Source of the DNA: an uncultured Verrucomicrobiae bacterium
GTDB taxonomy: Bacteria > Verrucomicrobiota > Verrucomicrobiia > Chthoniobacterales > JAFAMB01
DNA: 64,000 bases
Assembly: GCA_963762565.1 (NCBI GenBank)
Contig: CAVXLD010000012.1
Coordinates: 320,001-384,000, forward strand
Direction: 5' to 3'
Positions within the stretch are counted from its first letter, which is position 1. Each line of letters begins with the position of its first letter. Of the stretch, positions 4,064-50,355 are shown one piece after another. The translations under genes and the position numbers were made by a program. The notes under the pieces were generated by a model, which saw only the letters and a list, made by a program, of their open reading frames with translations, was not told the origin of the DNA and did not search any database.

Positions 4064-4585
4064 CTACTTCTCCCCGTGATGTTCATGAAATACACGCTGA
4101 GCCGCAGCATAATCCTCTTCGAACGTCTCATCGTGGCCATGTTTATGTCCTCCTCCGTATGCACCGGTTTCCGGCGTGAATTTTTCGGTTACCAAACTAA
4201 CTATGACCCCGAGACCAACTAACATTTCTTTCAGTACCGGATCAGCCTGCAGCAAAAGACGATCCGGCCGGATCTCGATCGCAGTGTGCCGATTCCCGAG
4301 ATGATAGGCGGCGCGCAACAACAGAAACGGGTCTGGCGCCGTGACCATCATGAGGTTCTCTGTTGCGGCCTGAATCTCGAACTGGGAACCATCCTCGCTT
4401 TCAACAACATCTCCTTCTCGTAAGATCGTTCCCGGCGGCAATAATATCCCGATTTCCTCGCCGCTATCTAATTTCACTAATTGCCGGCTTTTCTTACGCG
4501 CTTCAAAAGCAAGAACCAGCCTAGGTATATTCGTGACCGGCGCGGTTGTACCGCTTTTTGGTACTAGCTTAGTAAATCTTCGCAT
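4064..4585 (-). CDS. ureE: Urease accessory Ni chaperone UreE
   Basis: AAYHLGNRH, PETGAY and His-rich tail; its ATG overlaps the ureC TGA. Confidence 0.95.
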   Translation of the reverse strand: MRRFTKLVPKSGTTAPVTNIPRLVLAFEARKKSRQLVKLDSGEEIGILLPPGTILREGDVVESEDGSQFEIQAATENLMMVTAPDPFLLLRAAYHLGNRHTAIEIRPDRLLLQADPVLKEMLVGLGVIVSLVTEKFTPETGAYGGGHKHGHDETFEEDYAAAQRVFHEHHGEK

Positions 4586-6285
4586 CAGAAAAGAAAATAA
4601 CGTTGAGCCATGGGCAAGACTTTGGCCGGTTCGCAGGTCAGAACCTGACCGTCGGCTGAAACCTCGTAAGTCTCCGGATCGACCGTTATCTTGGGTAGCC
4701 AAGCATTATGGATAAGATCCTGTTTCTTGAGATGGCGAATGCCGCTTACGGCTACTAATCGGCGCTGGAGGCCGTAGCGGTCGCCGATTTTGGATTCCGC
4801 TGCCAGCTGAGAAATGAAAGTGAGGCAAGTCTTCGCCAAAGCCACTCCTCGCGTGGCGAACATTTCCCTATAGATGACCGGCTGAGGGGTTGGGATCGAA
4901 GCGTTGGCGTCACCCATGAGGGCAATCGCTATCATACCGCCTTTCAATACCATGGATGGTTTGACGCCAAAGAAAGCGGGTGCCCAGAGCACTAGATCAG
5001 CCCATTTTCCGACCTCGACTGAACCGACCTCATGGGCAATGCCATGAGTCATTGCCGGATTGATCGTGTACTTCGCGACGTAACGTTTTGCTCGGAAATT
5101 ATCATTTCGAGAAGAGTCACCGGGCAATGACCCGCGTTGAACCTTCATTTTGTGAGCGGTTTGCCAAGTTCGCAAAATGACTTCACCGATTCGTCCCATC
5201 GCTTGTGAATCGCTGGACATCATCGAAATGGCGCCCAGGTCATGCAGGATGTCTTCGGCTGCAATCGTTTCTCGACGAATGCGCGACTCGGCAAAGGCCA
5301 GGTCCTCAGCGATGTTGGCGTCGAGGTGATGGCAAACCATCAACATGTCGAGATGCTCATCCAGCGTGTTAACGGTAAAAGGTCTGGTAGGATTGGTGGA
5401 GGAGGGTAAGACGTTTGCTTCACCGCACACCTTGATGATGTCAGGGGCATGCCCGCCGCCGGCTCCCTCGGTGTGATAAGCGTGAATTGTCCGTCCTTTG
5501 AGGGCCGCGATGCTGGCTTCGACAAATCCCGACTCGTTCAAGGTGTCGGTATGAAGAGCGACTTGGGTGTCAGTCTCGTCCGCGACCGATAGAGAAGTAT
5601 CGATGGCAGCCGGAGTCGTTCCCCAATCTTCATGTAGTTTTAAACCGATGGCTCCAGCAGCGATCTGTTCGCGAAGCGGTTCGGCCTGGCTGGCATTTCC
5701 TTTGCCTAGAAACCCCAAATTAATTGGGTAACCTTCCGCTGCCTGTAACATCCGCTCGATATGCCAAGGTCCCGGGGTACAAGTGGTGGCGCAGGTGCCG
5801 GCGGCTGGTCCGGTTCCACCGCCGATCATGGTGGTTAACCCCGCGGCGACGGCTTCATCAATCTGTTGCGGGCAAATGAAATGAACATGGGTATCAAGCC
5901 CGCCAGCGGTTATGATCATTCCTTCACCAGCGATCGCTTCGGTCCCGGCTCCGATAATGATGTTCACGCCGGGCTGAATATCTGGATTTCCCGCTTTACC
6001 GACTCCAGCGATACGTCCGTCTTTGATGCCGATATCGGCCTTAACGATACCCCAATGATCCAGGATCACGGCATTAGTAATGACGGTATCAACAGCCTCC
6101 TTGATCGTGCGTTGAGATTGGCCCATGCCATCTCGGATAACCTTACCGCCGCCGAACTTGACCTCTTCCCCGTAAACCGTGAAGTCTTTTTCGATCTCGA
6201 TAATGAGTTCTGTATCGGCCAAACGGATTCGATCCCCAACCGTAGGACCGAACATTTCTGCGTACGCTTCTCGGGTGATCTTCAT
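4585..6285 (-). CDS. ureC: Urease subunit alpha
   Basis: [54 protein letters not shown]. Confidence 0.99.
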
Positions 6286-6400
6286 GGGAGAAAACTGGTA
6301 GGGCGAGGCTCCAAAATGTGACAAACTCCCGACGTGTTGGCTTCCCAATCAGCTAGACCTAGAAACGAAGCTGCATGGCCGAGCCAGGGGTTGCGCGTGC

Positions 6401-6706
6401 TCATAAAGCTCCCATAATCTTTCCATTAAAACCATAGATGATCCGATCGCCGCCGATCTCCACCAGCTCTACGGTCTTTTCCTGACCGGGTTCAAATCGG
6501 ACGGCGGTGCCGGCGGCAATGTTCAGGCGGTAGCCTCGGCTCGCTTCCCGATCGAATTTGAGCGCCTCATTGACTTCATAAAAATGAAAATGCGAACCAA
6601 CCTGGATCGGTCGATCGCCGGTGTTTGCGACGTCGACTTTTAGTACAGCGCGACCGGCGTTGAGCTCGATCTCGCCAGGTTCCACGAAAATCTCACCAGG
6701 AATCAT
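6401..6706 (-). CDS. ureB: Urease subunit beta
   Basis: [30 protein letters not shown]. Confidence 0.98.
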
Positions 6707-6726
6707 AGACGTTGTAACTTAAAACC

Positions 6727-6890
6727 AACCGCGAATGGATCCGCCTTCGCAGGCTACGGCGCGACAAGCTACGAATAGGCGCGGTAGATCTCGAAGGACT
6801 ATCTGCGTACATCGGAGCCTGTCCGCCGTAGCCTTCAACCTGTAGGAAGCTTTCTTTCACAGCGTAGCGAAGGCGGATTAATCTGCGGTT
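6727..6890. repeat. Composite repeat: family C arms with inserted family B palindromes
   Basis: ATCTGCGT..ATCGGAGCCTGTCCGCCGTAGC...TAGCGAAGGCGGATT.ATCTGCGGTT, nearly duplicated at 15532-15621. Confidence 0.7.
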
Positions 6891-6908
6891 GGACTTCTTT
6901 TTCGGGTT

Positions 6909-7211
6909 TTAGGGTATCGGGTTGTGAACGGTGACCAGCTTGGTGCCGTCAGGGAAGGTGGCCTCGATTTGGATCTCTGGGATCATCTCGGGTACGCCCT
7001 CTAAGACTTGGTCTCGCCTTAACAGAGTGGCGCCGAACTGCATCAGCTCAGCGACGGATTTGCCGTCGCGAGCTCCTTCAAGGAGCGCTGCTGTGATCAG
7101 CGCCGTGGCTTCCGGATGATTCAACTTCAGGCCGCGTTGCAGCCTGCGTTCTGCCAACAACGAGGCAGTAAAGATGAGGAGCTTATCTTTCTCGCGCGGG
7201 GTCAGGTTCAT
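6909..7211 (-). CDS. ureA: Urease subunit gamma
   Basis: [28 protein letters not shown]. Confidence 0.98.
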
Positions 7212-37657: not shown

Positions 37658-38671
37658 ATGGAAAACGAACTGGTCAAATTCAAGGAAAGTGCTCTAGCGG
37701 AAATCGAAGGAGCTAAGACTCCAATCGAGCTGGATAGTGTCCGCGTTAAGTATCTGGGCCGCGCCGGTCTTATCTCGAAGCTCAGCGAGAGCATGCGGGA
37801 TGTTCCCAAGGAAGAACGGCCCCGGTTAGGGAAGCTGTTGAATGAGGTTCGATTGACGTTGTCAGGGGCTTTCGAAGCCCGGGCTGAGGCGTTCGCTACC
37901 CAGCACGACTTGGCGGCGATTGAGGATATCGACGAAACTTTACCGGGGACACCTCTACGAATCGGCTCGCTTCATCCGCTAACCCAACTCCAAGATCGTG
38001 CTATTCAGGTGTTCCGCCGTTTAGGATTCGCCTTGGCTGCAGGCCCGGACATTGACACAGAGTGGAATTGCTTTGATGCCCTAAATACTCCGCCGAATCA
38101 TCCGGCCCGCAATGAGACCGATACGTTTTATCTTTTTGATGGGCGTTTGCTCCGGACTCACACCTCGACGGTCCAAATCCGTACAATGTTAGCGGTGCCG
38201 CCGCCGGTGAGGGTGATCGCTCCCGGGGCAGCCTATCGCCGGGATGAAATGGATGCCACCCATCTTAGCCAGTTCAATCAGCTCGAAGGTCTTTATATCG
38301 ACAGGAAAGTGACTGTAGCCGACCTGAAAGGCACACTGGAATATTTTGTGCGCGAACTGCTTGGTTCGCAGGTCGAGACTCGGATGCGCCCGCATTTCTT
38401 TCCCTTCACCGAACCGAGTTATGAATTGGACGTTCGCCTTCCCGGGGTCAATGCCGGACGGTGGATGGAACTCCTGGGTTGCGGGATGGTAGATCCAAAC
38501 GTCCTCGAGAAAGTCAACGAAGGAAGGGGCGATCGCGCCTATGATCCGGAAATTTTCTCGGGATATGCATTCGGCATGGGTCTGGACAGATTGGCGATGG
38601 CCCTCTTTGCTTTGCCCGATATCCGTTTGCTGATCGAAAACGATCAACGGTTCTTAGCCCAATTCTCGTAA
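37658..38671 (+). CDS. pheS: Phenylalanine--tRNA ligase alpha subunit
   Basis: HPAR..DTFY, LLRTHTS.VQ, FPFTEPS, GYAFGMGLDR. Confidence 0.97.
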   Translation: MENELVKFKESALAEIEGAKTPIELDSVRVKYLGRAGLISKLSESMRDVPKEERPRLGKLLNEVRLTLSGAFEARAEAFATQHDLAAIEDIDETLPGTPLRIGSLHPLTQLQDRAIQVFRRLGFALAAGPDIDTEWNCFDALNTPPNHPARNETDTFYLFDGRLLRTHTSTVQIRTMLAVPPPVRVIAPGAAYRRDEMDATHLSQFNQLEGLYIDRKVTVADLKGTLEYFVRELLGSQVETRMRPHFFPFTEPSYELDVRLPGVNAGRWMELLGCGMVDPNVLEKVNEGRGDRAYDPEIFSGYAFGMGLDRLAMALFALPDIRLLIENDQRFLAQFS

Positions 38672-41081
38672 TGAAGCTTTCGCTTAACTGGCTCCGAGAG
38701 TACTTGCCGGCGTTAGACCGCTCATCTGAGGAGATCGCGGATGCTCTGACCTTCACCGGAGTTGAGGTCGAAGGTGTCCATGTCCATGGAGCCGGTATTG
38801 AAAAGGTCGTAGTCGCTCAGATTGAATCTTTTCAACCGCATCCCAATGCGGACCGGCTTAGCGTTTGCCGGGTTTGGGACGGTTCCAAGGCACCGAGACA
38901 GATTGTTTGTGGAGCAAAGAATTTTCAGGCCGGAGATAAGGTGCCTTTGGCGTTGCCCGGCGCGGTATTGCCGGATGGGACCAAGATCAAGGCTAGCAAA
39001 CTTCGGGGCGTTGAGTCTGAAGGGATGCTTTGCAGCGAACGAGAACTCGGTTTTTCTGATGAAGCCAGCGGGCTAATGATCCTCGATCCTGGAGCGCCGA
39101 TTGGAGCTGCTTTGGGGGACCTTTTCCCACCTGACACAATTTTTGATCTCAGATAACACCGGATCGGCCGGATCTGTTGAGCTATGTTGGTTTGGCACGT
39201 GAATTAGGCATCATTTTCCAGCTACCCGGTTTTAACCTGCCGGACGCTTCGAGTGCTGGCGTCGCCAAGCCGGTTTCCGATCCCAACCAGGTTCGAATCG
39301 ACGCGCTACAAGCATGCCCATTCGCTGTTTTTCATGAGGTCCGAGACGTTACGGTTGGTCCAAGCCCAGATTGGATGCGTCGTCGGCTCGAAGCCGCCGG
39401 GCTCCGTTCCATCAACAATATTGTCGATGTTACGAACTATGTGATGCTCGAGACAGGGAAGCCGATTCACGCTTACGATTTGAGCAAGCTTGCCTTGCCA
39501 ATCATCATTCGCTTTGCCCGACCCGGAGAAAAGCTGCTTGCCTTGGACGGTAAAACTTACGAGTTGAGCCCACCGCATCTGATTATTGCGGATTCGGCGA
39601 AAGCGATCGGCCTGGGCGGTGTGATGGGCGGAGAAGACACTGGAGTTTCTTCTGGAACGACGACGGTTCTAGTCGAGAGCGCCTATTTCGATCCCGGATT
39701 GACTCGAAGTACCAGCCGGGGATTGGGCTTAATTTCGGATGCGAGTTTTCGATTCGAGAGAGGCGTGGATCCGAAGTCGGTCTTGTTTGCCGCTCAAAGA
39801 GCGGTCCAATTGATTAAAGAGGTCGCCGGTGGTACGGCTTCGACTTCAATTTTGGTGGCCGGGGAAGAGCCAAAGAACGAACGCCAAGTTTTATTCCGGC
39901 CGGAACGCTGCACCGACATTCTCGGCTCAGAAGTGCCCGATGCGACGCTGATTCTTCAGAGAATCGGTCTTGAACCTGCCGCCAAGGATTACTGGAAGAT
40001 TCCCAGCTATCGTCTCGATCTCAGCGCGAGATCGATTTGATCGAAGAAGTGAGCCGGTACTACGGCATCCAGAAGCTTCCCGGTCGCCTGCAAGGAAGCC
40101 CTACGACCAGCTCTCTGATCGATATCGCTCATGATGATGCGATGCTCTGCGCCGTAAACTCGAAGGTCTCGGTCTGGCCGAGGCTCGAACCTTGGTCTTT
40201 CTCGACGAGCCCTCACTGAAGAACGGCCTTGGACCGGTGGGGGAAACGCTGCAATTGCGGAATCCGTTGGCGGAAGATCAACAATGCTCCGCCCGTCTCT
40301 GATACCAGGTTTGTTGCGGGCGGCCAAACGAAACTTGAATGGGGGCGCCCATAGTGTGCCTTGTTCGAACTTGGAAAGGTTTTCGTCCCTATGGACTCGT
40401 CGCGCCATAGTCCCGCGCCCGAGGAGAGGCGGACCTGTCGCGCCGTAGCGAAGCGGAGGCGGAAGAATCGACGAAGCTGGCAATCTTGCTTTCGGGGGAG
40501 AACGCCGTTCCTTCATGGAATCAAACTAGCCGCGGTTACGATTTGTTCGATGCCAAGGGCATTTTGGAGACGGTTTACGGTTCTGGTCTTCAAACCCAGC
40601 GGATTGTTCCAATGATCTCGCCGCCCTAATTTGCGAGCTGGTCTCTAACGGTCGTAGGATCGGATATCTGGGATTGGTCAGGCCGCGTCAAGCACGTGAA
40701 ATGGGGGCAAAAAGCGCGGTGGTCCTTGCTGAGGTCCAATTACCGACCGCAGCAGCTGGTTCGGCTTTCAAGCTCAAGCCGCTTCAGCGATTCCCTGCGG
40801 TTACGCGCGACATCGCTTTCGTGGCGCCGCGGTCGATGCATTGGGGAGAAGTGGTTGCGACACTGAATTCGGCGGAGAATCGTTATTGGTCGATGTCCAG
40901 GTTTTCGATCTTTTTATCGATCCCAGCGGGCAAAAAGTGCCGGCCAATAAAAAATCATTGGCCTGCAGTTTGACTTATCGGCTGCTGATCGGACCTGACC
41001 CAAGATGAAGTAAACGAGGTTCATCAGCGATTGAAGAAACGGTTGGTTGATGAGCTCGGTGTGAATTTACCAGAAGGATAG
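38671..41081 (+). CDS. pheT: Phenylalanine--tRNA ligase beta subunit, broken by several indels (probably sequencing errors)
   Basis: MKLSLNWL, HPNADRL, SINNIVDVTNYVMLE, ASFRFERG, FELGKVF, RFPAVTRDIA occur in successive frames. Confidence 0.9.
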
Positions 41082-41132
41082 TTCTTTAAAAACGTAGACG
41101 CGTTCCGTTCCGCGATGGCGGCGGAAACAACT

Positions 41133-41310
41133 TTGCCCTGCGGTGCTCGGGATTTAAGGCAATTGCCCCAGCCCCGATATAAATATCCCAAGGAGGCTAG
41201 GTCGTGCGCGGTTAATGACAGGCCTTGATTGGAAGTCAGAAACGTGCCGGCGGTGATCCACCCTTGCTAAGGGGAATGGGAGCTTCGCCTAATCGGCATT
41301 AGTGGGGCAA
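41133..41310 (+). ncRNA. ssrS: Probable 6S RNA
   Basis: ~178 nt; 5' TTGCCCTGCGGTGCTCG pairs with 3' CGGCATTAGTGGGGCAA; internal CCACCCTT..AAGGGG hairpin typical of the 6S 3' bubble; located downstream of pheT. Confidence 0.7.
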
Positions 41311-41347
41311 CTTATACGATAGGCGCCTCATTGTTCTACAAAGGCGC

Positions 41348-41482
41348 CTATGGTCTTTTTGGGTTCACGGTTCGCAGTTCACGGTCGGATCTGGCCGGGT
41401 GCCGGCTCATTACGAGCACTCGATCGCTCAGCAGGATCGCTTCGTCCACGTCGTGGGTGACAAACACAATGGTCATCTTCAA
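41348..41482 (-). pseudogene. C-terminal fragment of an ABC ATPase (nitrate/sulfonate type)
   Basis: Translates as [31 protein letters not shown] (H-loop); no upstream Walker motifs. Confidence 0.7.
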
Positions 41483-41745
41483 GGGGCGGCTTTCGCGAGC
41501 GCATGACGCGTGCCCGGCTCCAGCAACGTCGCCACGATGCGGCGACCAAAAGCGATCGCCCGCCCAAGAAGCGACAGACCCAACACCCCCTATAAGTCAT
41601 ATAGGTCCTATAAGTCCTATTCGCCCTGGCCGCCCTACCGCCCACTCCTCTCGCCAAGCTCTTTCCTGAGGCCTGTGCTTGATTTGTCTTATGCCGGCTT
41701 TTCTGTATGTGAAGCCTCAATGAAAATCGACCAAACGTGCAGGAA

Positions 41746-42561
41746 ATGAGGATATACGCGCTGGTAGCGATCGGCGGCGGACTCGGCAGCTTGCTCCGCT
41801 TCGCTATTTCTCAGTGGATGGCTCCAATGCCGGTCTGGTCCCCTTTATCGATTCTCATGATCAATGTGAGCGGATGCTTCCTGATCTCTTTTCTGAATTT
41901 TGTTTCCGATCCGACCGGTGAAATCTACCTGGGACCGAATATTCGCGTTTTTCTCATGGTCGGTGTCTGCGGCGGTTACACCACGTTTAGCACCTTTAGC
42001 CTTATCTCCTTTAATGCTCTACGTCATAATACGGTGATAGATTTATGGCTAAACATTGGCCTGTCGCATCTCCTTTGTTTGTTGGCTATTTGGGTTGGCG
42101 CCCTCGTTGCGTTCGGCCTTCCCCGGGCAGTTGCGGGGGGGTTGTCTTCGCAGCTAGATGCAATCCAACAAAACATGCTGGCAATTATTTTAGTATTTAT
42201 CGGCGGCGCGCTAGGTTCTATCTGGCGGTTTTGGTGGTCCGGCTGGGTCGCGGAGCGATTCGGAGAGACTTTTCCTTTCGGCACATTAGTCGTCAATGTC
42301 GTCGCATCGGCTTTGCTCGGACTGGTCTCAGGGCTGATACTCCGCCTAGGCGCCACGGACACTGCCGCGGTATTACAACAATTTATTTCAGTTGGCGTCT
42401 GCGGCGGATTAAGCACCTTTTCGTCGTTCAGCCTGCAAACCTGGAACCTGCTGATGGAAAGACGGTGGATAGCCGCCATCACAAACATAATTGTTTCAAC
42501 TGCGGTCTGTTTCGCGTCGATCGCGCTTGGATGGCAGGCTTCTGTTAATGCTCATCTATAA
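41746..42561 (+). CDS. crcB: Fluoride channel CrcB/Fluc, two domains in one ORF
   Basis: Two copies of GG.LGS..RF ... N ... GVCGG.[ST]TFS[ST]FS. Confidence 0.9.
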   Translation: MRIYALVAIGGGLGSLLRFAISQWMAPMPVWSPLSILMINVSGCFLISFLNFVSDPTGEIYLGPNIRVFLMVGVCGGYTTFSTFSLISFNALRHNTVIDLWLNIGLSHLLCLLAIWVGALVAFGLPRAVAGGLSSQLDAIQQNMLAIILVFIGGALGSIWRFWWSGWVAERFGETFPFGTLVVNVVASALLGLVSGLILRLGATDTAAVLQQFISVGVCGGLSTFSSFSLQTWNLLMERRWIAAITNIIVSTAVCFASIALGWQASVNAHL

Positions 42562-42576
42562 TCGAATCATGCGCAT

Positions 42577-42924
42577 ATGGAACTTTCTCAAGACGCGCTG
42601 CTTTTAAGAATCTTCATCGGCGAAAAAGACGAATATGAAGGGCAACCGCTCTTTAAGGCTCTGGTCTTAAAGGCGCGCGAGCTGCATTTAGCTGGTGCGA
42701 CGGTTTTCCGCGGTCCTTTGGGGTTTGGAAGGTCAAGCCACCTTCATAGCAGCGGGATTCTGCGTCTATCGTTCGACCTGCCCATGGTGATAGAGATTGT
42801 CGACACAGAAGAGAAGGTCCAGAGCTTCGTGGCCCAAATTGAAAGCATGGTCGGCGGCGGTCTGATTACCGTCGAACGGGTGCAGGCAATCTTCTACAAG
42901 GGCCGCGGGGAGAGTGATGGCTAG
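42577..42924 (+). CDS. DUF190 (PII-like) protein
   Basis: LLRIFIGE, LAGATVFRG..GFG, LS.DLP.VIEIVD. Confidence 0.9.
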   Translation: MELSQDALLLRIFIGEKDEYEGQPLFKALVLKARELHLAGATVFRGPLGFGRSSHLHSSGILRLSFDLPMVIEIVDTEEKVQSFVAQIESMVGGGLITVERVQAIFYKGRGESDG

Positions 42925-42931
42925 CCAAGGA

Positions 42932-42970
42932 GAAGGCGGATCCGCGCTACCAGAGCGCGGATCTGCCTTC
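42932..42970. terminator. Hairpin between convergent DUF190 genes
   Basis: GAAGGCGGATCCGCGCT-accag-AGCGCGGATCTGCCTTC. Confidence 0.6.
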
Positions 42971-43364
42971 ACTTTAGCTCGTGCTGATATCGAATGATCT
43001 GCGCGCGCTCTATGGTGATCAGCCCTCGCTGCATCATCTTCCGGAGCTCAGGCAAGAACTCCTGGATCGTATCTGGCGTGTCCACGATCTCCACAATCAT
43101 AGGCAAATCGAGAGAAAGCCGCAGGATGTTCGCGTTATGGAGATGATGGGAACGGCCAAATCCCATCGGACCCCGCAATACCGTAGCGCCTGCAAGCTTC
43201 AACTCCCGTGCCCGAAGCACGATGGCCTTGTAAAGAGGGCGGTGATTGTACTCCTCGGCCTCTCCGATAAAGATACGGAGCAAGAGGCATTCTTGCGGTA
43301 GGTCGCGCGTCCGCCGAGAAGGCAACTGTCCGGGGGAAGATGCAGCCTGAGGGGTAGTGACCAT
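42969..43364 (-). CDS. DUF190 (PII-like) protein
   Basis: LLRIFIGE, LAGATVLRGPMGFG, LSLDLPMIVEIVD. Confidence 0.9.
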   Translation of the reverse strand: MVTTPQAASSPGQLPSRRTRDLPQECLLLRIFIGEAEEYNHRPLYKAIVLRARELKLAGATVLRGPMGFGRSHHLHNANILRLSLDLPMIVEIVDTPDTIQEFLPELRKMMQRGLITIERAQIIRYQHELK

Positions 43365-43469
43365 AACGGGAATAAATTCCCTGAGCGGTTCACCGACACC
43401 CTCACGAGATCTTAGGTACGAGTCTAAATAGCACGGGTAGCTGAAGCAAATTTGACACTGTGCAATTGT

Positions 43470-43817
43470 CTACTCGGCTTCATCAAATAGATCGACTACT
43501 TGCGCTTTCTCCAAGGTGATCAACCCGCTCGGCATCATCTGCTCGAGTACTGGAAGAAAAGCGTTGATCTTCTCCGAGCTGTCTACAATCTCGATGACCA
43601 CTGGTAAATCGGATGAAAGCCTCAGCGGATTCGCCTGATGAAGTCGACTCGATTTCCCGAACCCGAGGGTGCCATGTAAGACCGTAGCGCCGGCTAGCTG
43701 CAACTCGCGCGCCTTCAATACGATGGCCTCAAACAGTGGGCGATGGTGGAACCGGTTTTTATCGCCGGTAAAGATTCGCAATAGCGTTGACTCATCCGGA
43801 GGTGCAGCCATATCCAA
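43470..43817 (-). CDS. DUF190 (PII-like) protein
   Basis: LLRIFTGD, LAGATVLHG..GFG, LSSDLPVVIEIVD. Confidence 0.9.
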   Translation of the reverse strand: MDMAAPPDESTLLRIFTGDKNRFHHRPLFEAIVLKARELQLAGATVLHGTLGFGKSSRLHQANPLRLSSDLPVVIEIVDSSEKINAFLPVLEQMMPSGLITLEKAQVVDLFDEAE

Positions 43818-43973
43818 CGTTAACCTTATCGGAGCCGAGCCACCGGTTCAAGCTGACAACAGAACCGGCGACCGAGCAAAAAAATGATCTTCACTCAGCA
43901 ATACGCAATACCGACCTGCTCCGCGTTGTTAATTCCAAGCCTGCAAGCGGCGCTCTAACCCCAATTCCGAATA

Positions 43974-45491
43974 TTATACACCTGAGGGCTCTCCAAATAT
44001 CTGGTTATAGAGATCTTCTCCGTAACTGGTCTCCAATGGTTCGGCTTCGACTAACTTAAACGTGCGAGTCCCATCGCTTTCTCTTTCCGCCCGTAAAAAA
44101 AGTATATTTTCCTGTTTTGTTGCATGGAATCCAGAGGCAAACGTATACTGATGGCTTACAAAAAAGATTTTAAACCCCTTTTCGATCAAAGCCGACACAA
44201 TCTGCCTTGCAATCTCCGATCCTTCTCGTTCGTTCGTAGCGGCAAACGATTCGTTAAATAACAATATCGAATCCGGGACCAAATGTTCTGCGATCTCGCT
44301 CATTCTGGTTAGTTCTTCATCGAATTTCCCGCTCTTCATGCTTGCGTCCTCCTCGCGCTTGAAGTGAGTAAACACGCTCGGACACATATTGGCCGAGAAA
44401 GACTCCGCCCCGACGAACATGCCCGCCTGCATCATCAATTGAGCCAGACCGACGCTCCGCAAAAACGTGGACTTTCCTCCCTGGTTCGCACCCGTAACGA
44501 TAATAAGATCTTTTTCGTCTGCGTCGACGTCATTTCCGATCACTCTCTGTCGCAAACGCAACGATAAGCAGACATCGTACAGTCCACGAAAAGAATGCTT
44601 TCGTTCGGTTGCAGGGACTGGCTCCGGCCAGCAGATCGGCTCCCCCTTTTTCGCCAGTTGTTCCCGCAGATTCAGGCAGCTAACATAGAACGCCAGTTCG
44701 GCTCTCAACATCTTGAAGAAATTCAGGATATGATCCGTAGATTGCGCTAGCGCGTTCGCTACCAGGTTAATCCCCCGTTCGTTCAGCTCAGATAAGGCTC
44801 TGGCACCGTTTTCGTCACGGGGATCAAGAACAAACGTGTAACCGGCCTCTCTTATACCAAAGTACTGCTGAAGCCAGGAAATAATCCAATGCTGTTTGAT
44901 TCGCGCCTTCCTGAGGATATAGTTCCTTCCCTTATTACCTTTCCCCAGCTGCGCACTGATCAAGACGCCGGCGCGGAATTTCATTTCCTTTAGATGAGCC
45001 TTTATGCTGGCGAAATATTCGTCGGTTAGTTCGGCCTCCAGCGTAGCCAATAGATTTCTAAAGCCCTCAGACTGGAATGCTGCGCCGTGCTGCGCCGACG
45101 CTGATCTCAATTTTTGCAGAACTTCGATGAGGTAGTACAACAGCTCGATCGCCCGACCGAGAATCCCAGCTGGATATTTGCTGAAGATACCCCAGGAGCA
45201 CTTTCTCTCACATTGGATTCCTTCTACCGCCAGCGCATAGAGCCCCCGAACGACGGCAGGATTCTTCAGGCAGTCCTGTAGGATACGCTGCCGATACAGA
45301 ATAGTGTCCAAATCGTTGTCCAAGCTGCAGAGGACAACGGATTCAGCTACTCGCAACAGAAACTCATCACCAGTGGCCATCGCGCCGAACAGAGTGTCCA
45401 GTGCCAAGTCCGGCATCAGCGTTTTCTTGCTCCACGGTAGGGTTTGTCCAAAATCAAAGTCGCGGTCTCGAAAAAGCAGAAATGCTTTCAT
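43974..45491 (-). CDS. Short MutS-related ATPase, subunit 2 (MutS domain V, no mismatch-recognition domain evident)
   Basis: TGANQGGKSTFLRSVGLAQLM.Q.G.FV, THFKREED, GKFDEEL, FNESFAATN, VSH. Confidence 0.88.
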   Translation of the reverse strand: MKAFLLFRDRDFDFGQTLPWSKKTLMPDLALDTLFGAMATGDEFLLRVAESVVLCSLDNDLDTILYRQRILQDCLKNPAVVRGLYALAVEGIQCERKCSWGIFSKYPAGILGRAIELLYYLIEVLQKLRSASAQHGAAFQSEGFRNLLATLEAELTDEYFASIKAHLKEMKFRAGVLISAQLGKGNKGRNYILRKARIKQHWIISWLQQYFGIREAGYTFVLDPRDENGARALSELNERGINLVANALAQSTDHILNFFKMLRAELAFYVSCLNLREQLAKKGEPICWPEPVPATERKHSFRGLYDVCLSLRLRQRVIGNDVDADEKDLIIVTGANQGGKSTFLRSVGLAQLMMQAGMFVGAESFSANMCPSVFTHFKREEDASMKSGKFDEELTRMSEIAEHLVPDSILLFNESFAATNEREGSEIARQIVSALIEKGFKIFFVSHQYTFASGFHATKQENILFLRAERESDGTRTFKLVEAEPLETSYGEDLYNQIFGEPSGV

Positions 45492-47071
45492 GGTTCCATG
45501 CGCGCTTTCAATTGCTCGAAAGTGAGCCCATGTTTTTCAGCAAGGGACAGCGCGTACGAGAGTCCGGCGGCCGGCTTTCGCAAAACCTTAAAAGTCCTTA
45601 TTGTCGGGTCTTGCGGATCAACCATGCTAACCAAACTCACTACCTGCTGGGAAAATGAAGCTAAGTCGTCGACGAAGGTTACCCAGACGCACACCGCGTC
45701 TCGCTCGATTATTTTCTCGATTACCTTCTTACTGAGAAACAGCGCGTCTCGAAGAGTTGTGGAGGTAAAAATCTCATTCATGATAATGAGGCTGTTCGAA
45801 GTCGCCTCTTCAGAATTTCATGAATTCTTACTACGTCATCTTGGAGTTTGCCCCGCAGGTTCGCCATGTTTTCTTGCCTCTCGAAATGGGCTAGGATTTT
45901 GTCGAAGAGGAAGACTCGAGACGGGTACCCGGAACTGGACAGCCGATGCTAGCCAAGTAGTGAATCTGGCCAAAAGCACGGGCGAATGTGGTTTTTCCAC
46001 CTGGATTCGGCCCTGACACCACGAATATCCGTTCGGGATCTTTCAGGTAGAAGTCGTTACAAACAGTTCCTGCGTCGTTGATCACTTGCTGATGAGCCAG
46101 GGCCAGGTCGAACCCTTCATAGTTGTAAACCTCTTTGGATCGAGTTGGAGATTTCCGGATAACAAAATTTCAATCCGGTACGTTCAATCAATTCCGCAGT
46201 ATTCGAGATAAGCAAGGTAGAACTGGATCTCGCGATCGAAACGCTCGACGGTTTTATCTATATAGTCGGCGTTGCGGTACGCAGACGATCCAGATAAGTG
46301 AAGTGCCGGATATAAGCAGACGACAGAATTCCAGGATCTTGGCTTCGATCTGATTCATCGACAGGCGGTTCTCAAAATCAACTTATAGTCCTTTACCGCG
46401 CCCTGCTTGAATTTCTCAAACGTCTCTTCGACCTCAGTGCTATAATCGGTCTGGTCGTCATATCTCCGATCGTGAAATTTCCAAGCCGGACATTTACTGT
46501 ATAGGTGATTGACGATAGATCGGTGTTCGGTTTTTGCGCTTCCAGTGTTAGCAACCGGAAGGACTCGGATTCAACGTACGTCTTGAGATAACTCCGGAGA
46601 CCGGTGAAATTATGGACCTAAACGTACCGTTAAGAGCTCTTGAGCAAAGCTGTTAACCGCCTCACAATAGGTTCCCAAGGCGTCCAAAAAACAGCGGCGC
46701 TTTTGATATTGGTAGTACAGCTTGCCTACGGTGGTGAGATGCTCGCGCATTGTCCCCATTTTCGCGGCAAACGATCTCACGGATCGCAATAATCCTGCGG
46801 CCTCCAGATCTTGAAACACCTCATGGCGGTAGGCGATTGCATCAATGTCGCCTAACGGAGTGTAAAAAAACGGTTTCAGCTCGTAGCCGGCCTTGCCGAC
46901 TGTGATGCCGTCCACGATCTGATCAAGATTTAGGTCACGAAAAAAGTCACGAGTGTCTGCCGTCTCCTGATTTATGCCATCCTCGGGTCTCGCAAAGAGT
47001 ATGCTCTGGAAAGCCGGAGAGCTTCCCGTTGTTGTTTCGATCAAATCATCCAGTGTCGCCTCATACTTCAT
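45488..47071 (-). CDS. Short MutS-related ATPase, subunit 1; multiple indels
   Basis: [38 protein letters not shown] and MNEIFTSTT in different frames; 4-nt overlap with the next gene. Confidence 0.8.
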
Positions 47072-47103
47072 TGCCCTCCCCCTAGTGTTTGCGAGTTATT
47101 TAC

Positions 47104-47168
47104 ACTAGGAGTCATCAGCCCAAACTGGGTGGTTTGCCGTCTCCGGCGAGGCTAACTCCATAGCCTCT
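47104..47168 (-). promoter_or_regulatory. Fluoride (crcB) riboswitch upstream of the MutS-like operon
   Basis: GAGGCTATGGAGTTAGCCTC...AAACC.CCCAG.TTGGGCTGATGACTCCTA matches GGYRATGGAGT.YGCC ... GCTGATGACTCCT. Confidence 0.9.
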
Positions 47169-47175
47169 TGAGAGG

Positions 47176-47239
47176 AAGCTATGGGATAATCGGGTGGAAA
47201 TCAATACCTCTTGGCGGGCGGCCAGTGAGGCATTATCAT
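47176..47239. promoter_or_regulatory. Back-to-back sigma70-type promoters
   Basis: Minus strand TTGATT-N17-TAGCTT (47204-47176); plus strand TTGGCG-N17-TATCAT (47211-47239); each lies just before an aptamer. Confidence 0.5.
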
Positions 47240-47240
47240 G

Positions 47241-47308
47241 ATGACGGCAATGGAGTTTGCCGTCATGGCTTCGGCCGGGACATCGCGGTCCTCGCTGATA
47301 ACTCCTGT
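47241..47308 (+). promoter_or_regulatory. Fluoride (crcB) riboswitch upstream of the AAA+ ATPase
   Basis: GACGGCAATGGAGTTTGCCGTC ... GCTGATAACTCCTG. Confidence 0.85.
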
Positions 47309-47321
47309 TCATCACCTTCCG

Positions 47322-48008
47322 ATGCACAGAGACCAACTACTCGAAGAACTGCGACGGTTGCATTGCCAGCAAGAGAATGTCTTACTGATCGGGCCGACCG
47401 GAATCGGTAAAACCACGCTTTTGCGGACTCTGAGTGAAACTCTGCCGCTCACAATTTGCGACGAAACGTTCGACCTCGGCCGGCTTTGCGATTGCCTCGA
47501 AAGCCGGATGCGCTGGTCTCATGAGAAATTTAGCATCATCGTTCGCAAGAACCGATTGCTCCGGCATCTGAGAACGCACCCGGATCCAGTCGCGTTCGAT
47601 CATGTGGCTGGAACGCCGCCACGGGTGGCGCGCTTTATTGGGCATTTGCTCGACGATATGCCCGTCTCGATCCGTGCCGTTCCGATCGCCGTCGAGACAT
47701 CGGTCATGTGTGGGAAAATCTCTCCCGGTTCGTTCGAATTGAAGTACCGCCCTTCACAGAGAGTGAGGCAGCACACCTGATTGCGGTTGCAGTTATTCCG
47801 GAAAGATCCAACCAGATGCGGTTCGGCATTGCCGGACCTTTATCGTCTAAGCCACGGTTCACCTCATACTTTGCAAGAACTCATAACCGAGCTCACCACT
47901 CGCAAATACAACATGAGCAGCGCAGCCGGCCTGAGGTTGTTGGAACTGGACCGGAAGATTCACAGACTGAATAATTTTGAGAGGCCGAACCTTTCGGGAG
48001 GGAGGTAG
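47322..48008 (+). CDS. Small AAA+-type P-loop ATPase of unknown function; apparent frameshifts
   Basis: LLIGPTGIGKTTLL Walker A, VAFDH, then IEVPPFTESEA and LYRLSHGSP..LQEL lid-like motifs in other frames. Confidence 0.7.
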
Positions 48009-48103
48009 TCGCTGCGAAGAAAGATTTAGACTGGCCTTTCTGACTCGGTATGCCGACGTCTGCCGACTGGCTGAATGTGGTTCTGAAGTTTAAGGTAAAT
48101 GGA

Positions 48104-48787
48104 ATGTCCTCTTTTTCGTTGATCGACTTCGCGTGTTGGCTGGTCGTGTTCCTTGGCTCAATGACCGCGCATGAGGCGTCTCATGCTTTTGTGGCCAAAC
48201 TTCTCGGTGACCCAACGGCGTATCTTGGCGGCCAAGTCACGCTAAACCCGATCCCTCATATTCGGCGTGAGCCGTTTGGGATGTTGCTGATTCCGATTAT
48301 CTCCTATTTGGCTGCAGGATACATGCTTGGCTGGGCCAGAGCACCGTACAATGCTGCTTGGGCCGGCCGGTTTCCCCGGCGGGCTGCCATCATGGCTCTG
48401 GCGGGACCGGCAGCAAATTTTGTAATCGCGTTGCTCTGTTGGATAGGGCTCAAATTCGGATTAGCAACCGGACTGTTCGTTCCAGGTATCACTGGGCGTT
48501 TTTCTGAAGCGGTCGTTTCATTGGAACCGGGTTTATGGAGCGTCGTAGCGATACTGCTGAGTCTTGGATTCTCGTTGAACCTACTCCTTGGTGTCTTCAA
48601 TTTGCTTCCGGTTCCACCACTTGATGGTAGCGCCTTACCTCTTTTGTTCCTCACTGGAGAGGCTTCTCTAGCCTACCAAAGAATCAGCCGCGGGAGCCTA
48701 GCCTTCCTTGGAATACTCGTGGCCTGGCAAATTTTCCCAAGAATCTATCGCCCTATCTGGTACTGGATGGAGTCGACGCTGAGGTGA
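48104..48787 (+). CDS. Site-2 protease (M50) family protein
   Basis: HEASH, LGDPTA, ALAGPAAN, FNLLPVPPLDG. Confidence 0.92.
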   Translation: MSSFSLIDFACWLVVFLGSMTAHEASHAFVAKLLGDPTAYLGGQVTLNPIPHIRREPFGMLLIPIISYLAAGYMLGWARAPYNAAWAGRFPRRAAIMALAGPAANFVIALLCWIGLKFGLATGLFVPGITGRFSEAVVSLEPGLWSVVAILLSLGFSLNLLLGVFNLLPVPPLDGSALPLLFLTGEASLAYQRISRGSLAFLGILVAWQIFPRIYRPIWYWMESTLR

Positions 48788-48793
48788 GCCGTT

Positions 48794-48978
48794 GGCGTTT
48801 GGCGTTCGGCGGGTAGGGGAGGGAGCGCCTCCCCGCGCGCCGCGAGGACGTACCATAACCTAACGGTGTATTCTTGTTCCCAGATTACAGCAAGTCCTCG
48901 GCTTTGATTACAACGGATCGCGAGGACGCGATCCCTCCCGGGCCACCGCCCGAACGCCGAACGCCGAACGCCAAACGC
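48794..48978. repeat. Family A element enclosed by GGCGTTC/GAACGCC heptamer arms
   Basis: Interior after the left arm resembles 20381-20420. Confidence 0.75.
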
Positions 48979-49316
48979 TAACCGGGCGGCCAATGCATCG
49001 AGCGACCACCCAACACATGTACGTGCAGATGCGGTACAGTCTCCCCACCGTTGCGACCACTATTGATAACCAACCTGTAACCGCTTTCGCTTAGGCCCAG
49101 ATCTGAGGCGACTTGCTTGGCAGTCAACAGCAGGCGTCCTAACAGCGGGGCGTCGGCAGGTTGAGCTTCAGCAATCCGTGGGATCACTCTTTTCGGAATT
49201 ACCAGCACGTGAACCGGCGCTTGCGGATTGACGTCATGGAAGGCCAAAATCTCGTCATCTTCGAAGACCACTTTCGCCGGGATTTCGCGGGCAACGATTT
49301 TTTCAAATAAGGTCAT
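48978..49316 (-). CDS. Histidine triad (HIT) nucleotide-binding protein
   Basis: AFHDVNPQAPVHVLVIPK and HLHVHVLGG. Confidence 0.95.
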   Translation of the reverse strand: MTLFEKIVAREIPAKVVFEDDEILAFHDVNPQAPVHVLVIPKRVIPRIAEAQPADAPLLGRLLLTAKQVASDLGLSESGYRLVINSGRNGGETVPHLHVHVLGGRSMHWPPG

Positions 49317-49867
49317 CGGATCGTTAACAGGACTTCAGATTTATCCTTTTCAAGCTGGGCGCGAAGAAAATCCACGATTTCCGTCCGCAACTCGGAACAG
49401 CCACGGCTCCAGGTCTTAACCGATTGAAGAAAGCGGACGCAGTTTTGCAGTCCCAAGACATTGATGTTTGGTGCTCGCCGCGAAAGCATTGGCTGCATCC
49501 GTTCTTTTAAAAGTTGGAAGAACGCCAACTCGTAGCCGGGACCGGCCTCCGCAGCAAGATCCGAAAGCGAGATTACGCCGGGTGGCTCGAGGGTTTCATA
49601 TTTCAACGCGATCTCGCCATGACCGATCGCTTGTAATGCGGACCGGATCACTTCGTTCAATTCAGAAATCGTGATCGCCGGCTTATCGTAGCAGTTGCCG
49701 AGAAAACAGAGGATGCTTTCGGTAACATGTCCTGCCAGCCACCATTGCGCGTAACCTGCTTTTACAGCGGCTCGAGCTAAGCATCCACACAACCAATCAC
49801 GGCGGATTATCTCGATTGATCCGTCGTCCAGTCGAAGCACGGGAATTGAGTCTAGGAGCGCGATCAC
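49313..49867 (-). CDS. Hypothetical protein coupled to nrdR
   Basis: 4-nt overlaps with both neighbouring genes. Confidence 0.75.
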   Translation of the reverse strand: MIALLDSIPVLRLDDGSIEIIRRDWLCGCLARAAVKAGYAQWWLAGHVTESILCFLGNCYDKPAITISELNEVIRSALQAIGHGEIALKYETLEPPGVISLSDLAAEAGPGYELAFFQLLKERMQPMLSRRAPNINVLGLQNCVRFLQSVKTWSRGCSELRTEIVDFLRAQLEKDKSEVLLTIR

Positions 49868-50355
49868 GGTATGAATAGCTCTGGTTGTTGAGCGTTACGT
49901 TTTGGTCTTTTGCCGAGGGATTCGATCTCGTTAATAAATTCGCCGATGTCTTGAAATTGACGATAGACCGAGGCGTAACGGATGTAGGCGACTTCGTCTA
50001 ACGAATGCAGCCGTTCCATTACGCGGACTCCGATCTCTTTGCTTGGAACCTCGTGGTCGAAAGTTTGCTCTAACTCGTGAATCACTTCCTCCGCGGCTCG
50101 TTCCAGAGCATCGTAGGCGACTGGTCGCTTTTCGCAGGCTTTGACCATTCCACCCAGTAACTTTTGCCGATCAAATGGTTCGTGACGACCATCTCTCTTC
50201 ACAACTCGCAAGTCTCTTCTCTCAATTTCTTCGTAGGTAGTGAACCGATGTTGGCAGGCCAAACACTCGCGACGCCGGCGAATTGCAGCTCCGGACTTAG
50301 CGGAGCGAGAATCGATTACTTTGTCTTCCAGATTGCCGCACTTCGGACAGCGCAT
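49864..50355 (-). CDS. nrdR: Transcriptional repressor NrdR
   Basis: MRCPKC...DSR...IRRRREC..C..RFTTYE, ATP-cone, VAYIRYASVY. Confidence 0.97.
   Translation of the reverse strand: MRCPKCGNLEDKVIDSRSAKSGAAIRRRRECLACQHRFTTYEEIERRDLRVVKRDGRHEPFDRQKLLGGMVKACEKRPVAYDALERAAEEVIHELEQTFDHEVPSKEIGVRVMERLHSLDEVAYIRYASVYRQFQDIGEFINEIESLGKRPKRNAQQPELFIP

Follow-up and report, generated by a model that had tools for sequence, protein, structure and literature searches.

The DNA considered here, a stretch of 64,000 nucleotides from an uncultured soil Verrucomicrobium of the order Chthoniobacterales (GenBank assembly GCA_963762565.1, contig CAVXLD010000012.1, positions 320,001 to 384,000; designated the window), carries a multi-part fluoride-response island. 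Two crcB-motif aptamers stand back to back between a leftward run of genes, in the order MutS4A, MutS4B, DUF190c, and DUF190b, and a rightward gene for a small AAA+ ATPase; the channel genes crcB1 and crcB2 together with DUF190a converge on the leftward run (Table 1). In a whole-genome search, the matches to PF02537 (CrcB) and PF02641 (DUF190) within this island were the only ones of the genome. The island is a further example of the known fluoride-riboswitch regulon and carries a known but unexplained MutS4 pair; new are the small AAA+ family tied to fluoride switches and the recurring twin-switch layout, most of the other parts having been linked to fluoride switches before. It is quite probable that we are dealing with a working fluoride-stress island, composed of twin switches, an unswitched channel, a MutS4A/B clamp ATPase, and an AAA+ switch, and that its broken frames and fused channel gene are assembly errors. 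The gene content proposed in an earlier annotation of the bare sequence (the original prediction) agrees with the results for open reading frames (ORFs) and Pfam domains (CrcB twice, DUF190 three times, MutS_V, MutS-like, and P-loop/AAA_16), and its notion of a multi-component fluoride system was likewise borne out, as relatives of each non-channel part sit behind fluoride aptamers elsewhere. Calling the system undescribed was too strong, because the hallmarks of MutS4A/MutS4B (PMC2190696) and the link between crcB RNA and mutS genes (printed in 2010; PMC2864571) had already been published.

When the window was searched on both strands with Rfam, three families scored above their cut-offs, fluoride aptamer L (RF01734) among them, and a permissive scan of positions 41000-49000 added aptamer R, which falls just below the cut-off with E-values of 8.9e-6 in the 8 kb and 1.6e-6 for the genome. 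A whole-genome search with RF01734, in which 150 of 733 first-look candidates were scored, returned aptamers L and R only. Aptamer R is likely a sub-threshold member of RF01734; the same gene family is abutted by an aptamer in two other loci (L052 and L063; loci and genomes of relatives are designated by L and G numbers). The two aptamers point away from each other on opposite strands at a spacing of 62 nt, close to the distance of about 70 nt that had been proposed for a divergent pair. Neither the Rfam search nor the permissive scan revealed a third aptamer in the window, be it before crcB1 or before DUF190c/b. In an alignment of the aptamers of this family (A1; window and L016-L024), an additional short hairpin is present between P1 and P2 (e.g. 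UUCCC...GGGAA), which for the Rfam model is an insertion.

The 3' end of aptamer L is located 27 nt from the start codon of MutS4A and that of aptamer R 7 nt from ATG 47322, and terminator-like U tracts are found behind the aptamer in neither leader. Both leaders are predicted to fold into hairpins which make use of the aptamer 3' strand. In the left leader, this strand (CUCCUAGUGU) would pair with ACACUAGGGG, including the first Gs of the Shine-Dalgarno run, and in the right leader it would close a hairpin holding the AUG start codon. The folds of the whole leaders have z values of -3.2 and -2.9, two of 200 shuffled sequences folding equally well in each case; for the hairpin segments alone the values are -1.8 (9 of 200 shuffles) and -2.4 (4 of 200). 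Control by both switches is probably translational, no terminator being present. The promoter scan gave a single sigma-70-like site for the switches, on the + strand at 47211-47239 (9 of 12 matches), and none for the switch on the - strand; as the five sites in the region compare with 5.2 expected by chance, the assumption that each switch has its own sigma-70-like promoter was not upheld.

The protein family behind aptamer R has been annotated throughout as hypothetical proteins or generic ATPases. A word-based search gave 419 hits, and in a full profile search covering 1.84 billion representatives, 467 clusters matched at E <= 0.001, 41 of them at E <= 1e-30. The AlphaFold2 (AF2) model of an intact relative (pLDDT 87.6, pTM 0.80) matches the fold of AAA+ proteins only, the best match being TnsC of ShCAST (TM 0.71/0.68, 14% identity), followed by MuB (0.62/0.62) and Cdc6/Orc1. 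With these minimal initiator AAA+ proteins (TnsC, 7m99; MuB, 8xvb; archaeal Cdc6/Orc1, 1fnn and 2v1u) the family shares its size and the fold of AAA+ core and lid, but it differs from TnsC, MuB, and Cdc6 in sequence (14-18% identity), in the lack of transposon or replication genes nearby, in the missing Walker B Glu, and in its fluoride-regulon partners. In alignment A2, the motif G-x-G-K-T (Walker A), Asp 110 (Walker B), and Arg 200 (lid, sensor-2) are invariant, and the Walker B Asp is followed by His or Gln in all 20 sequences, the catalytic Glu being absent. Because Walker B reads D-H or D-Q in all of them, the sequences suggest that the AAA+ protein acts as a nucleotide switch and not as a fast motor. 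The copy in the window is 51% identical to that of L016 and, as assembled, contains two frame changes relative to an intact relative of 245 aa, near 47670 and 47790; the proposed placement of the right switch at the head of an AAA+ gene was correct as to position, with a gene that is frame-broken as assembled.

A metagenome scan for the AAA+ family yielded 36 loci, 23 of which (L046-L068) were kept as long, good matches, while 13 partial or weak ones were dropped. RF01734 reached its cut-off in 14 of 20 loci, the three shortest of the 23 having been left out; a lineage model (R1) applied to all 23 added L052 and a weak hit in L061 and gave none in seven loci, all of them short contigs. An aptamer on the same strand and at most 4 kb upstream of the AAA+ gene occurs in 11 of the 23 loci, of which L056 and L057 may be one sequence. 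In six loci the operon partners of the AAA+ gene are MFS, DUF6062, and a dynamin-like GTPase; the other partners are DUF190, a Na+/H+ exchanger, Usp, and enolase, a complex-I/Hyf-like module, and crcB-crcB. In L052 and L063, the aptamer that abuts the AAA+ gene has a divergent twin, the layout thus being that of the window, and in L046 the other arm of the twin aptamers heads MutS4A. Altogether, back-to-back aptamer pairs recur in L018, L027, L046, L052, and L063. No searchable paper, partly judged by title, ties the AAA+ family to fluoride switches; the gene lists of Baker 2012 may already name AAA+ or DUF190 genes.

The first two genes of the leftward run are assigned by sequence to MutS4A/MutS4B on account of two published hallmarks, the stop/start overlap of the adjacent genes and an ATPase domain as the only recognisable one. 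This subfamily, of which PMC5742357 gives mycobacterial examples, was defined by adjacent paralogues with overlapping stop and start, an ATPase domain only, and a patchy distribution (Lin, Nei and Ma 2007; PMC2190696). PF00488 is the sole Pfam domain in MutS4B and in intact relatives of MutS4A, which have neither domains I and II nor Smr, and the profile match of the MutS4 protein to PDB entries is confined to about positions 271-506. The order A-then-B is the same in all 11 other pairs examined. As MutS4A was found in two of 301 genomes sampled evenly across the phylum, the pair is patchy in the sense of PMC2190696. A left switch followed by a co-oriented run that converges on crcB-DUF190 had been proposed, and this layout stands, whereas the first MutS-like gene is not open as assembled: translation from ATG 47071 runs into a stop after 153 codons, beyond which the similarity to intact MutS4A is spread over all three frames and interrupted by in-frame stops.

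For MutS4B, AF2 gave a model with a pLDDT of 70.8, with values of 85-95 for the N-terminal helices and below 50 for the clamp-tip region (residues 172-236). Over nearly its full length it aligns with residues 707-1312 of MSH6 (Z 24.1, rmsd 7.0, 431 aligned), with residues 262-772 of E. coli MutS (Z 22.0), and with the cores of MutS2 (Z 20.8-21.9). As modelled, MutS4B is composed of a MutS lever/core and the ATPase domain with a poorly defined clamp tip and is devoid of a mismatch-binding or nuclease domain. The lever/core, the ATPase domain, and the lack of mismatch-binding domains are shared with the MutS2 core (Thermus, 7vuk; Thermotoga, 9kce; B. subtilis MutS2 on collided ribosomes, 7qv3), but in MutS4B the Smr nuclease and the KOW tail are absent, Walker B has Asn for Asp, and the two paralogues would be expected to form a heterodimer, in contrast to the homodimer of MutS2. 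In alignment A3, Walker B is Asn-Glu in 11 of 12 sequences, including MutS4B of the window, and Ser-Glu in the remaining one. Since the H-loop His is kept in all seven MutS4B sequences, that of the window included, and replaced by Phe in all five MutS4A sequences, the comparison points to an asymmetric MutS4A/B heterodimer. KamC, the lysine aminomutase reactivase, was considered as an identity and rejected, the NCBIfam match being confined to the ATPase region with 69 bits against a cut-off of 300.

Of 12 MutS4 pairs in genomes of the family, six are preceded by a co-oriented aptamer (window, L016, L017 with an intervening DUF190c, L018, L023, and L024), and aptamer-headed MutS4 genes are also present in the metagenome contigs L046 and L058. 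The pairs without aptamer represent a second lineage, which this genus has retained downstream of GntR and DUF5808 genes; one of them, L020, has just about 200 nt upstream before the contig ends. The genome of the window itself harbours a second, intact MutS4A/B pair of this kind (G000 contig 5; L015, 5820-10724), preceded by GntR and DUF5808 genes and followed by an outer-membrane beta-barrel gene, an arrangement shared by three further genomes of the genus. The neighbourhood survey thus confirmed the association with fluoride aptamers for half of the MutS4 pairs and for the 14 of 20 AAA+ loci mentioned above. As early as 2010, crcB RNA had been described in front of mutS genes across phyla (Weinberg et al.; PMC2864571), whereas the MutS4 papers (PMC2190696; PMC5742357), in their accessible portions, make no mention of fluoride; the pair of the window is preceded by a fluoride aptamer and has two DUF190 genes after it.

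The island shares with the known fluoride riboswitch regulon (RF01734; PMC2864571; PMC11139923) the aptamer fold and its place in the leaders of mutS-like, channel-linked, and stress genes, and the islands of relatives carry published regulon members such as enolase, a Na+/H+ antiporter, Usp, and 'formate hydrogenlyase'-like complexes. It differs in the twin aptamers 62 nt apart, the probably translational control, the extra P1-P2 hairpin, and a channel operon without a switch; about 15% of Flucs are switch-controlled (PMC11139923). In the accessible portion of that 2024 review on fluoride, neither MutS nor DUF190 is named.

Table 1 Features of the fluoride island, with positions in the window
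Feature	Position	Strand	Evidence and remarks
crcB1 and crcB2 (Fluc heterodimer genes)	41746-42561	+	One 274-aa frame as assembled (open frame 41737-42561); PF02537 twice
DUF190a	42577-42924	+	PF02641, 125.9 bits, E 8e-37; PII-like small protein, 15 nt after crcB2
Inverted repeat between convergent DUF190a and DUF190b	42921-42981	both	61-nt stretch; hairpin-model match on both strands (mir-3926, chance level)
DUF190b	42969-43364	-	PF02641, 129.6 bits, E 5.5e-38; type with N-terminal extension
DUF190c	43470-43817	-	PF02641, 125.3 bits, E 1.2e-36
MutS4B	43974-45491	-	505 aa, intact; PF00488 only
MutS4A	45488-47071	-	Frame-broken as assembled; TGA overlaps MutS4B ATG (ATGA 45488-45491)
Fluoride aptamer L	47099-47174	-	RF01734, 43.3 bits (gathering score 34), full model 1-64
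Fluoride aptamer R	47237-47314	+	RF01734, 31.7 bits, sub-threshold (34), full model 1-64, no non-standard pair marked
Small AAA+ ATPase	47322-48008	+	P-loop/AAA_16 match; Walker A present, Walker B D-H; family about 235 aa

The channel frame contains two CrcB domains, at about 41761-42099 and 42187-42534, as indicated by the two PF02537 stretches (161 bits in all) and by the NCBIfam equivalog NF010802 (193.5 bits, cut-off 140). The original prediction had taken it for a double Fluc. A functional fusion of the type of eukaryotic FEX, a two-domain Fluc in one chain, needs a linker transmembrane segment which inverts the second domain. No hydrophobic linker lies between residues 134 and 142, that is, between the CrcB domains, and in relatives matching both halves the match is always either split in two or interrupted by a single stop (G002, G017, G009, and G014). 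Because the linker helix is lacking and the relatives keep the stop between the two genes, a FEX-like fused Fluc was rejected. A run of seven Gs is present at 42135-42141, the tail of crcB1 departs from that of the relatives just after it, a TAG is located out of frame at 42154-42156, and the likely start of crcB2 is ATG 42175. Judged from these sequence features, the fused frame of 274 aa is probably an assembly artefact, in which the stop between the usual two genes for a crcB1/crcB2 heterodimer is bypassed. Between pheT and crcB1, a 6S RNA-like match was noted at 41132-41312 (+), with 37.7 bits below the gathering score of 46.4 and an E-value of 5.5e-5 in 8 kb.

In relatives of the same genus the genes are arranged as DUF190c, DUF190b, and the convergent DUF190a, crcB2, and crcB1, with an aptamer directly before crcB1 (G001-G004 and G018) and a gene for an M50 peptidase beyond the aptamer. 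In the window, the block from crcB to DUF190c has the opposite orientation with respect to M50, and the space between DUF190c and M50 is occupied by MutS4A/B, the twin aptamers, and the AAA+ gene. In place of the crcB aptamer of the relatives, the window has repeated words such as TATAAGTC (41560-41700). Neither the riboswitch-type MutS4 pair nor a homologue of the AAA+ gene was found in five other genomes of the genus (completeness 78-95%), and both have their closest relatives in other genera of the family. This distribution fits an acquisition of the twin-switch cassette in the lineage of the window; its loss in the other members of the genus is the alternative.

The genes for DUF190 proteins, all scoring far above the PF02641 cut-off of 23.4 bits, belong to the same Pfam family as the solved DUF190/UPF0166 proteins PH1503 (PDB 2dcl) and TM0021 (1o51), with E-values of 1e-24 to 1e-28 to solved proteins, and like other members of that family they neighbour crcB; the island differs in having three paralogues of three recurring types in one locus. 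The order crcB1-crcB2-DUF190a recurs in relatives, DUF190b groups with L016:547-933 in alignment A5, and DUF190c followed by DUF190b is a recurring unit, which is headed by an aptamer in L016 and L046. In L017 an aptamer is followed by DUF190c and then by MutS4A/B. The gaps in the leftward run of the window measure 156 nt between MutS4B and DUF190c and 105 nt between DUF190c and DUF190b; since the c/b unit is aptamer-headed in two relatives and DUF190c precedes MutS4A in another one, co-transcription of DUF190c/b with MutS4A/B appears plausible. The inverted repeat between DUF190a and DUF190b is a possible two-way terminator. By analogy with their fold family, the DUF190 proteins are read as PII-like ligand sensors; the PII-like relative 2dcl was deposited with three chains. 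FlJ, encoded in the fluorometabolite gene cluster of Streptomyces cattleya, is a DUF190/UPF0166 protein as well (PMC9173684).

The broken frames were assessed by comparing positions 45300-48100 of the window with contigs of four soil runs from two studies. Near-identical contigs have 1-base insertions or deletions (indels) at or behind 45811, 45925, 46144/46145, 46382, 46468, 46614, and 46621 inside MutS4A, an additional G behind 47672 in the AAA+ gene, and others at 47072 and in the loop of aptamer R (47288/47289); seven further indels exist beyond those listed. Application of the seven MutS4A indels creates open stretches of 276 and 256 codons. The contig pieces which flank the broken stretch are 100% identical to the window, whereas in the broken stretch of 650 nt there are 13 substitutions and 10 gaps. 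The essential single-copy gene pheT (38671-41000, +) is fragmented into four or more frames (tRNA_bind, B3_4, gap, FDX-ACB), pheS being intact, and the cover by long ORFs is 0.32 in positions 40001-50000, the third lowest 10-kb bin, compared with 0.73 on average for the contig; elsewhere in the window, long frames are intact. Because near-identical contigs carry 1-base indels at the breaks and pheT is fragmented, the breaks in MutS4A and in the AAA+ gene are most likely local consensus errors. Such errors can imitate pseudogenes and gene fusions in long assemblies of uncultured soil bacteria, which calls for caution.

Several observations weigh against a working island. Aptamer R scores below the Rfam cut-off, and ATG 47322 is not preceded by a Shine-Dalgarno sequence. 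The AAA+ protein of the window is changed at two positions invariant in A2 (Glu to Val before KNRLL and Arg to His in GNPR) and lacks the N-terminal motif of the family, so this copy may be decaying. At least one frame break in MutS4A remains after the listed indels have been applied, and the contigs have a depth of 2-5 in three of the four runs, which may include the source sample of the assembly. Six of the 12 MutS4 pairs (L015, L019-L022, and L025) have no aptamer, and the sole experiment found for MutS4 links it, in the accessible portion of the paper, to homologous recombination and not to fluoride (PMC5742357).

Part of these observations would be accommodated if the island were in decay, with MutS4A and the AAA+ gene as true pseudogenes, a channel fused by loss of a stop, and a lost crcB switch, MutS4B, DUF190, and perhaps the channel still working. 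The broken and fused frames of the assembled sequence, the repeated words in place of the crcB1 aptamer, the deviations of the AAA+ copy at invariant positions, the low run depth with one run set perhaps being the source sample, and the break left unexplained all speak for such a decay, and, as the block is missing from the five further genomes examined in the genus, it may be a dispensable recent arrival. We consider decay unlikely, as near-identical contigs from other runs gain or lose one base precisely where the frames break, the contrast between identical flanks and the many substitutions and gaps in 650 nt is more readily explained by a poor consensus than by neutral decay, the same 10 kb contain the likewise broken essential gene pheT, and MutS4B is fully intact and adjoins an intact MutS4A in every relative examined. 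Of lower probability still is the idea that MutS4A/B is a factor of DNA recombination or repair without a special tie to fluoride, its switch reflecting a general stress link and its neighbours being unrelated passengers. Although a MutS4 operon was reported to increase homologous recombination in M. smegmatis (PMC5742357), half of the pairs of the family are without an aptamer, and the fold is that of MutS lever and ATPase domains, this idea is rendered highly improbable by the aptamer-headed pairs in five other genera of the family (G014, G015, G016, G021, and G022) and in unrelated metagenome contigs, often in islands with three or four aptamers, by the association of mutS with crcB RNA across phyla (PMC2864571), and by the lack of a mismatch-binding domain in MutS4. 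An anti-phage or anti-plasmid defence system, made up of the MutS-like pair and a STAND-like P-loop protein and placed beside fluoride genes by chance, might be suspected from weak Pfam matches of the P-loop protein to nSTAND1, NACHT, and AAA_16 and from the patchy distribution of MutS4A in the phylum. PADLOC-DB 2.0 gave no match for MutS4A, MutS4B, and DUF190, however, and the ATPase matches mad8 over a P-loop of 27-29 residues only (E 7e-6 and 4e-4); furthermore, MutS4A and the AAA+ gene are located directly behind fluoride aptamers here and in relatives, and their partners are transporters, enolase, Usp, and CrcB instead of nucleases, so that such a system is extremely improbable.

For the working fluoride-stress island, the following mechanism can be envisaged. 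Fluoride which has leaked into the cell would be bound together with Mg2+ by each aptamer, whereby the 3' CUCC strand would be locked into the pseudoknot. In the left leader, this strand would then no longer pair with the ribosome-binding region, and in the right leader the start-codon hairpin would be freed; judged from the predicted folds, translation downstream would rise and both leaders would represent translational ON switches. The crcB1/crcB2 channel, presumably expressed without a switch in this genome, would export fluoride. MutS4A/B would most likely be an asymmetric clamp ATPase resembling the MutS2 core and acting on DNA or another large substrate containing nucleic acid, the handling of which may fail once Mg2+ is sequestered and NTPases are trapped by fluoride. 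With its fold of the TnsC/MuB/Cdc6 type, the AAA+ protein could serve as a switch or assembly factor dependent on nucleotide, and the DUF190 proteins as PII-like trimeric ligand sensors tuning their partners. The regulon might in this way supply NTPases of the clamp or switch type whose altered Mg2+-site residues allow them to keep working in the presence of fluoride-Mg species or to be set by these. Fluoride is known to disturb the assembly and activity of the AAA+ ATPase ClpX, which depend on Mg2+-ATP (PMC12700350). No mechanism for the MutS4 pair, the AAA+ protein, or DUF190 in fluoride defence was found in the searchable literature.

Doubtful is the further proposal that the P-loop NTPases of the regulon (MutS4A/B, the AAA+ protein, and in relatives the dynamin-like GTPase) form a defence which does not export fluoride, their active sites being remodelled at the Mg2+/gamma-phosphate site, and that the twin-switch MutS4A/B-AAA+ module is a mobile cassette. 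If true, the Walker B changes (Asn-Glu in MutS4, Asp-His or Asp-Gln in the AAA+ family) would keep the enzymes working when Mg-fluoride traps NTPases or would let Mg-fluoride switch them. Defence against fluoride is usually explained by export and by extra copies of inhibited enzymes. A clamp-type pair of MutS paralogues, a minimal AAA+ protein, and three PII-like proteins are recurrent members of the regulon, and the compact AAA+ family tied to fluoride switches adds one more testable candidate.

Some further observations concern genes behind fluoride aptamers in relatives and a match elsewhere in the window. In several loci, namely L016 (aptamer 7093-7172, gene 6324-7067), L027, L032, L046, L050, and L060, the first gene after a fluoride aptamer encodes a YfcE-like metallophosphoesterase of about 247 aa. 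In L016 (1083-2283; relative G022), another aptamer heads an enolase gene of which the C-terminal barrel alone is in frame, the gene being broken or affected by an assembly error. At 5853-6136 (+) of the window, the model of the Helicobacter 5' ureB sRNA gave a match of 108.6 bits, which overlaps a large ORF on the minus strand (4585-6348) and may reflect similarity of coding sequence rather than an sRNA.

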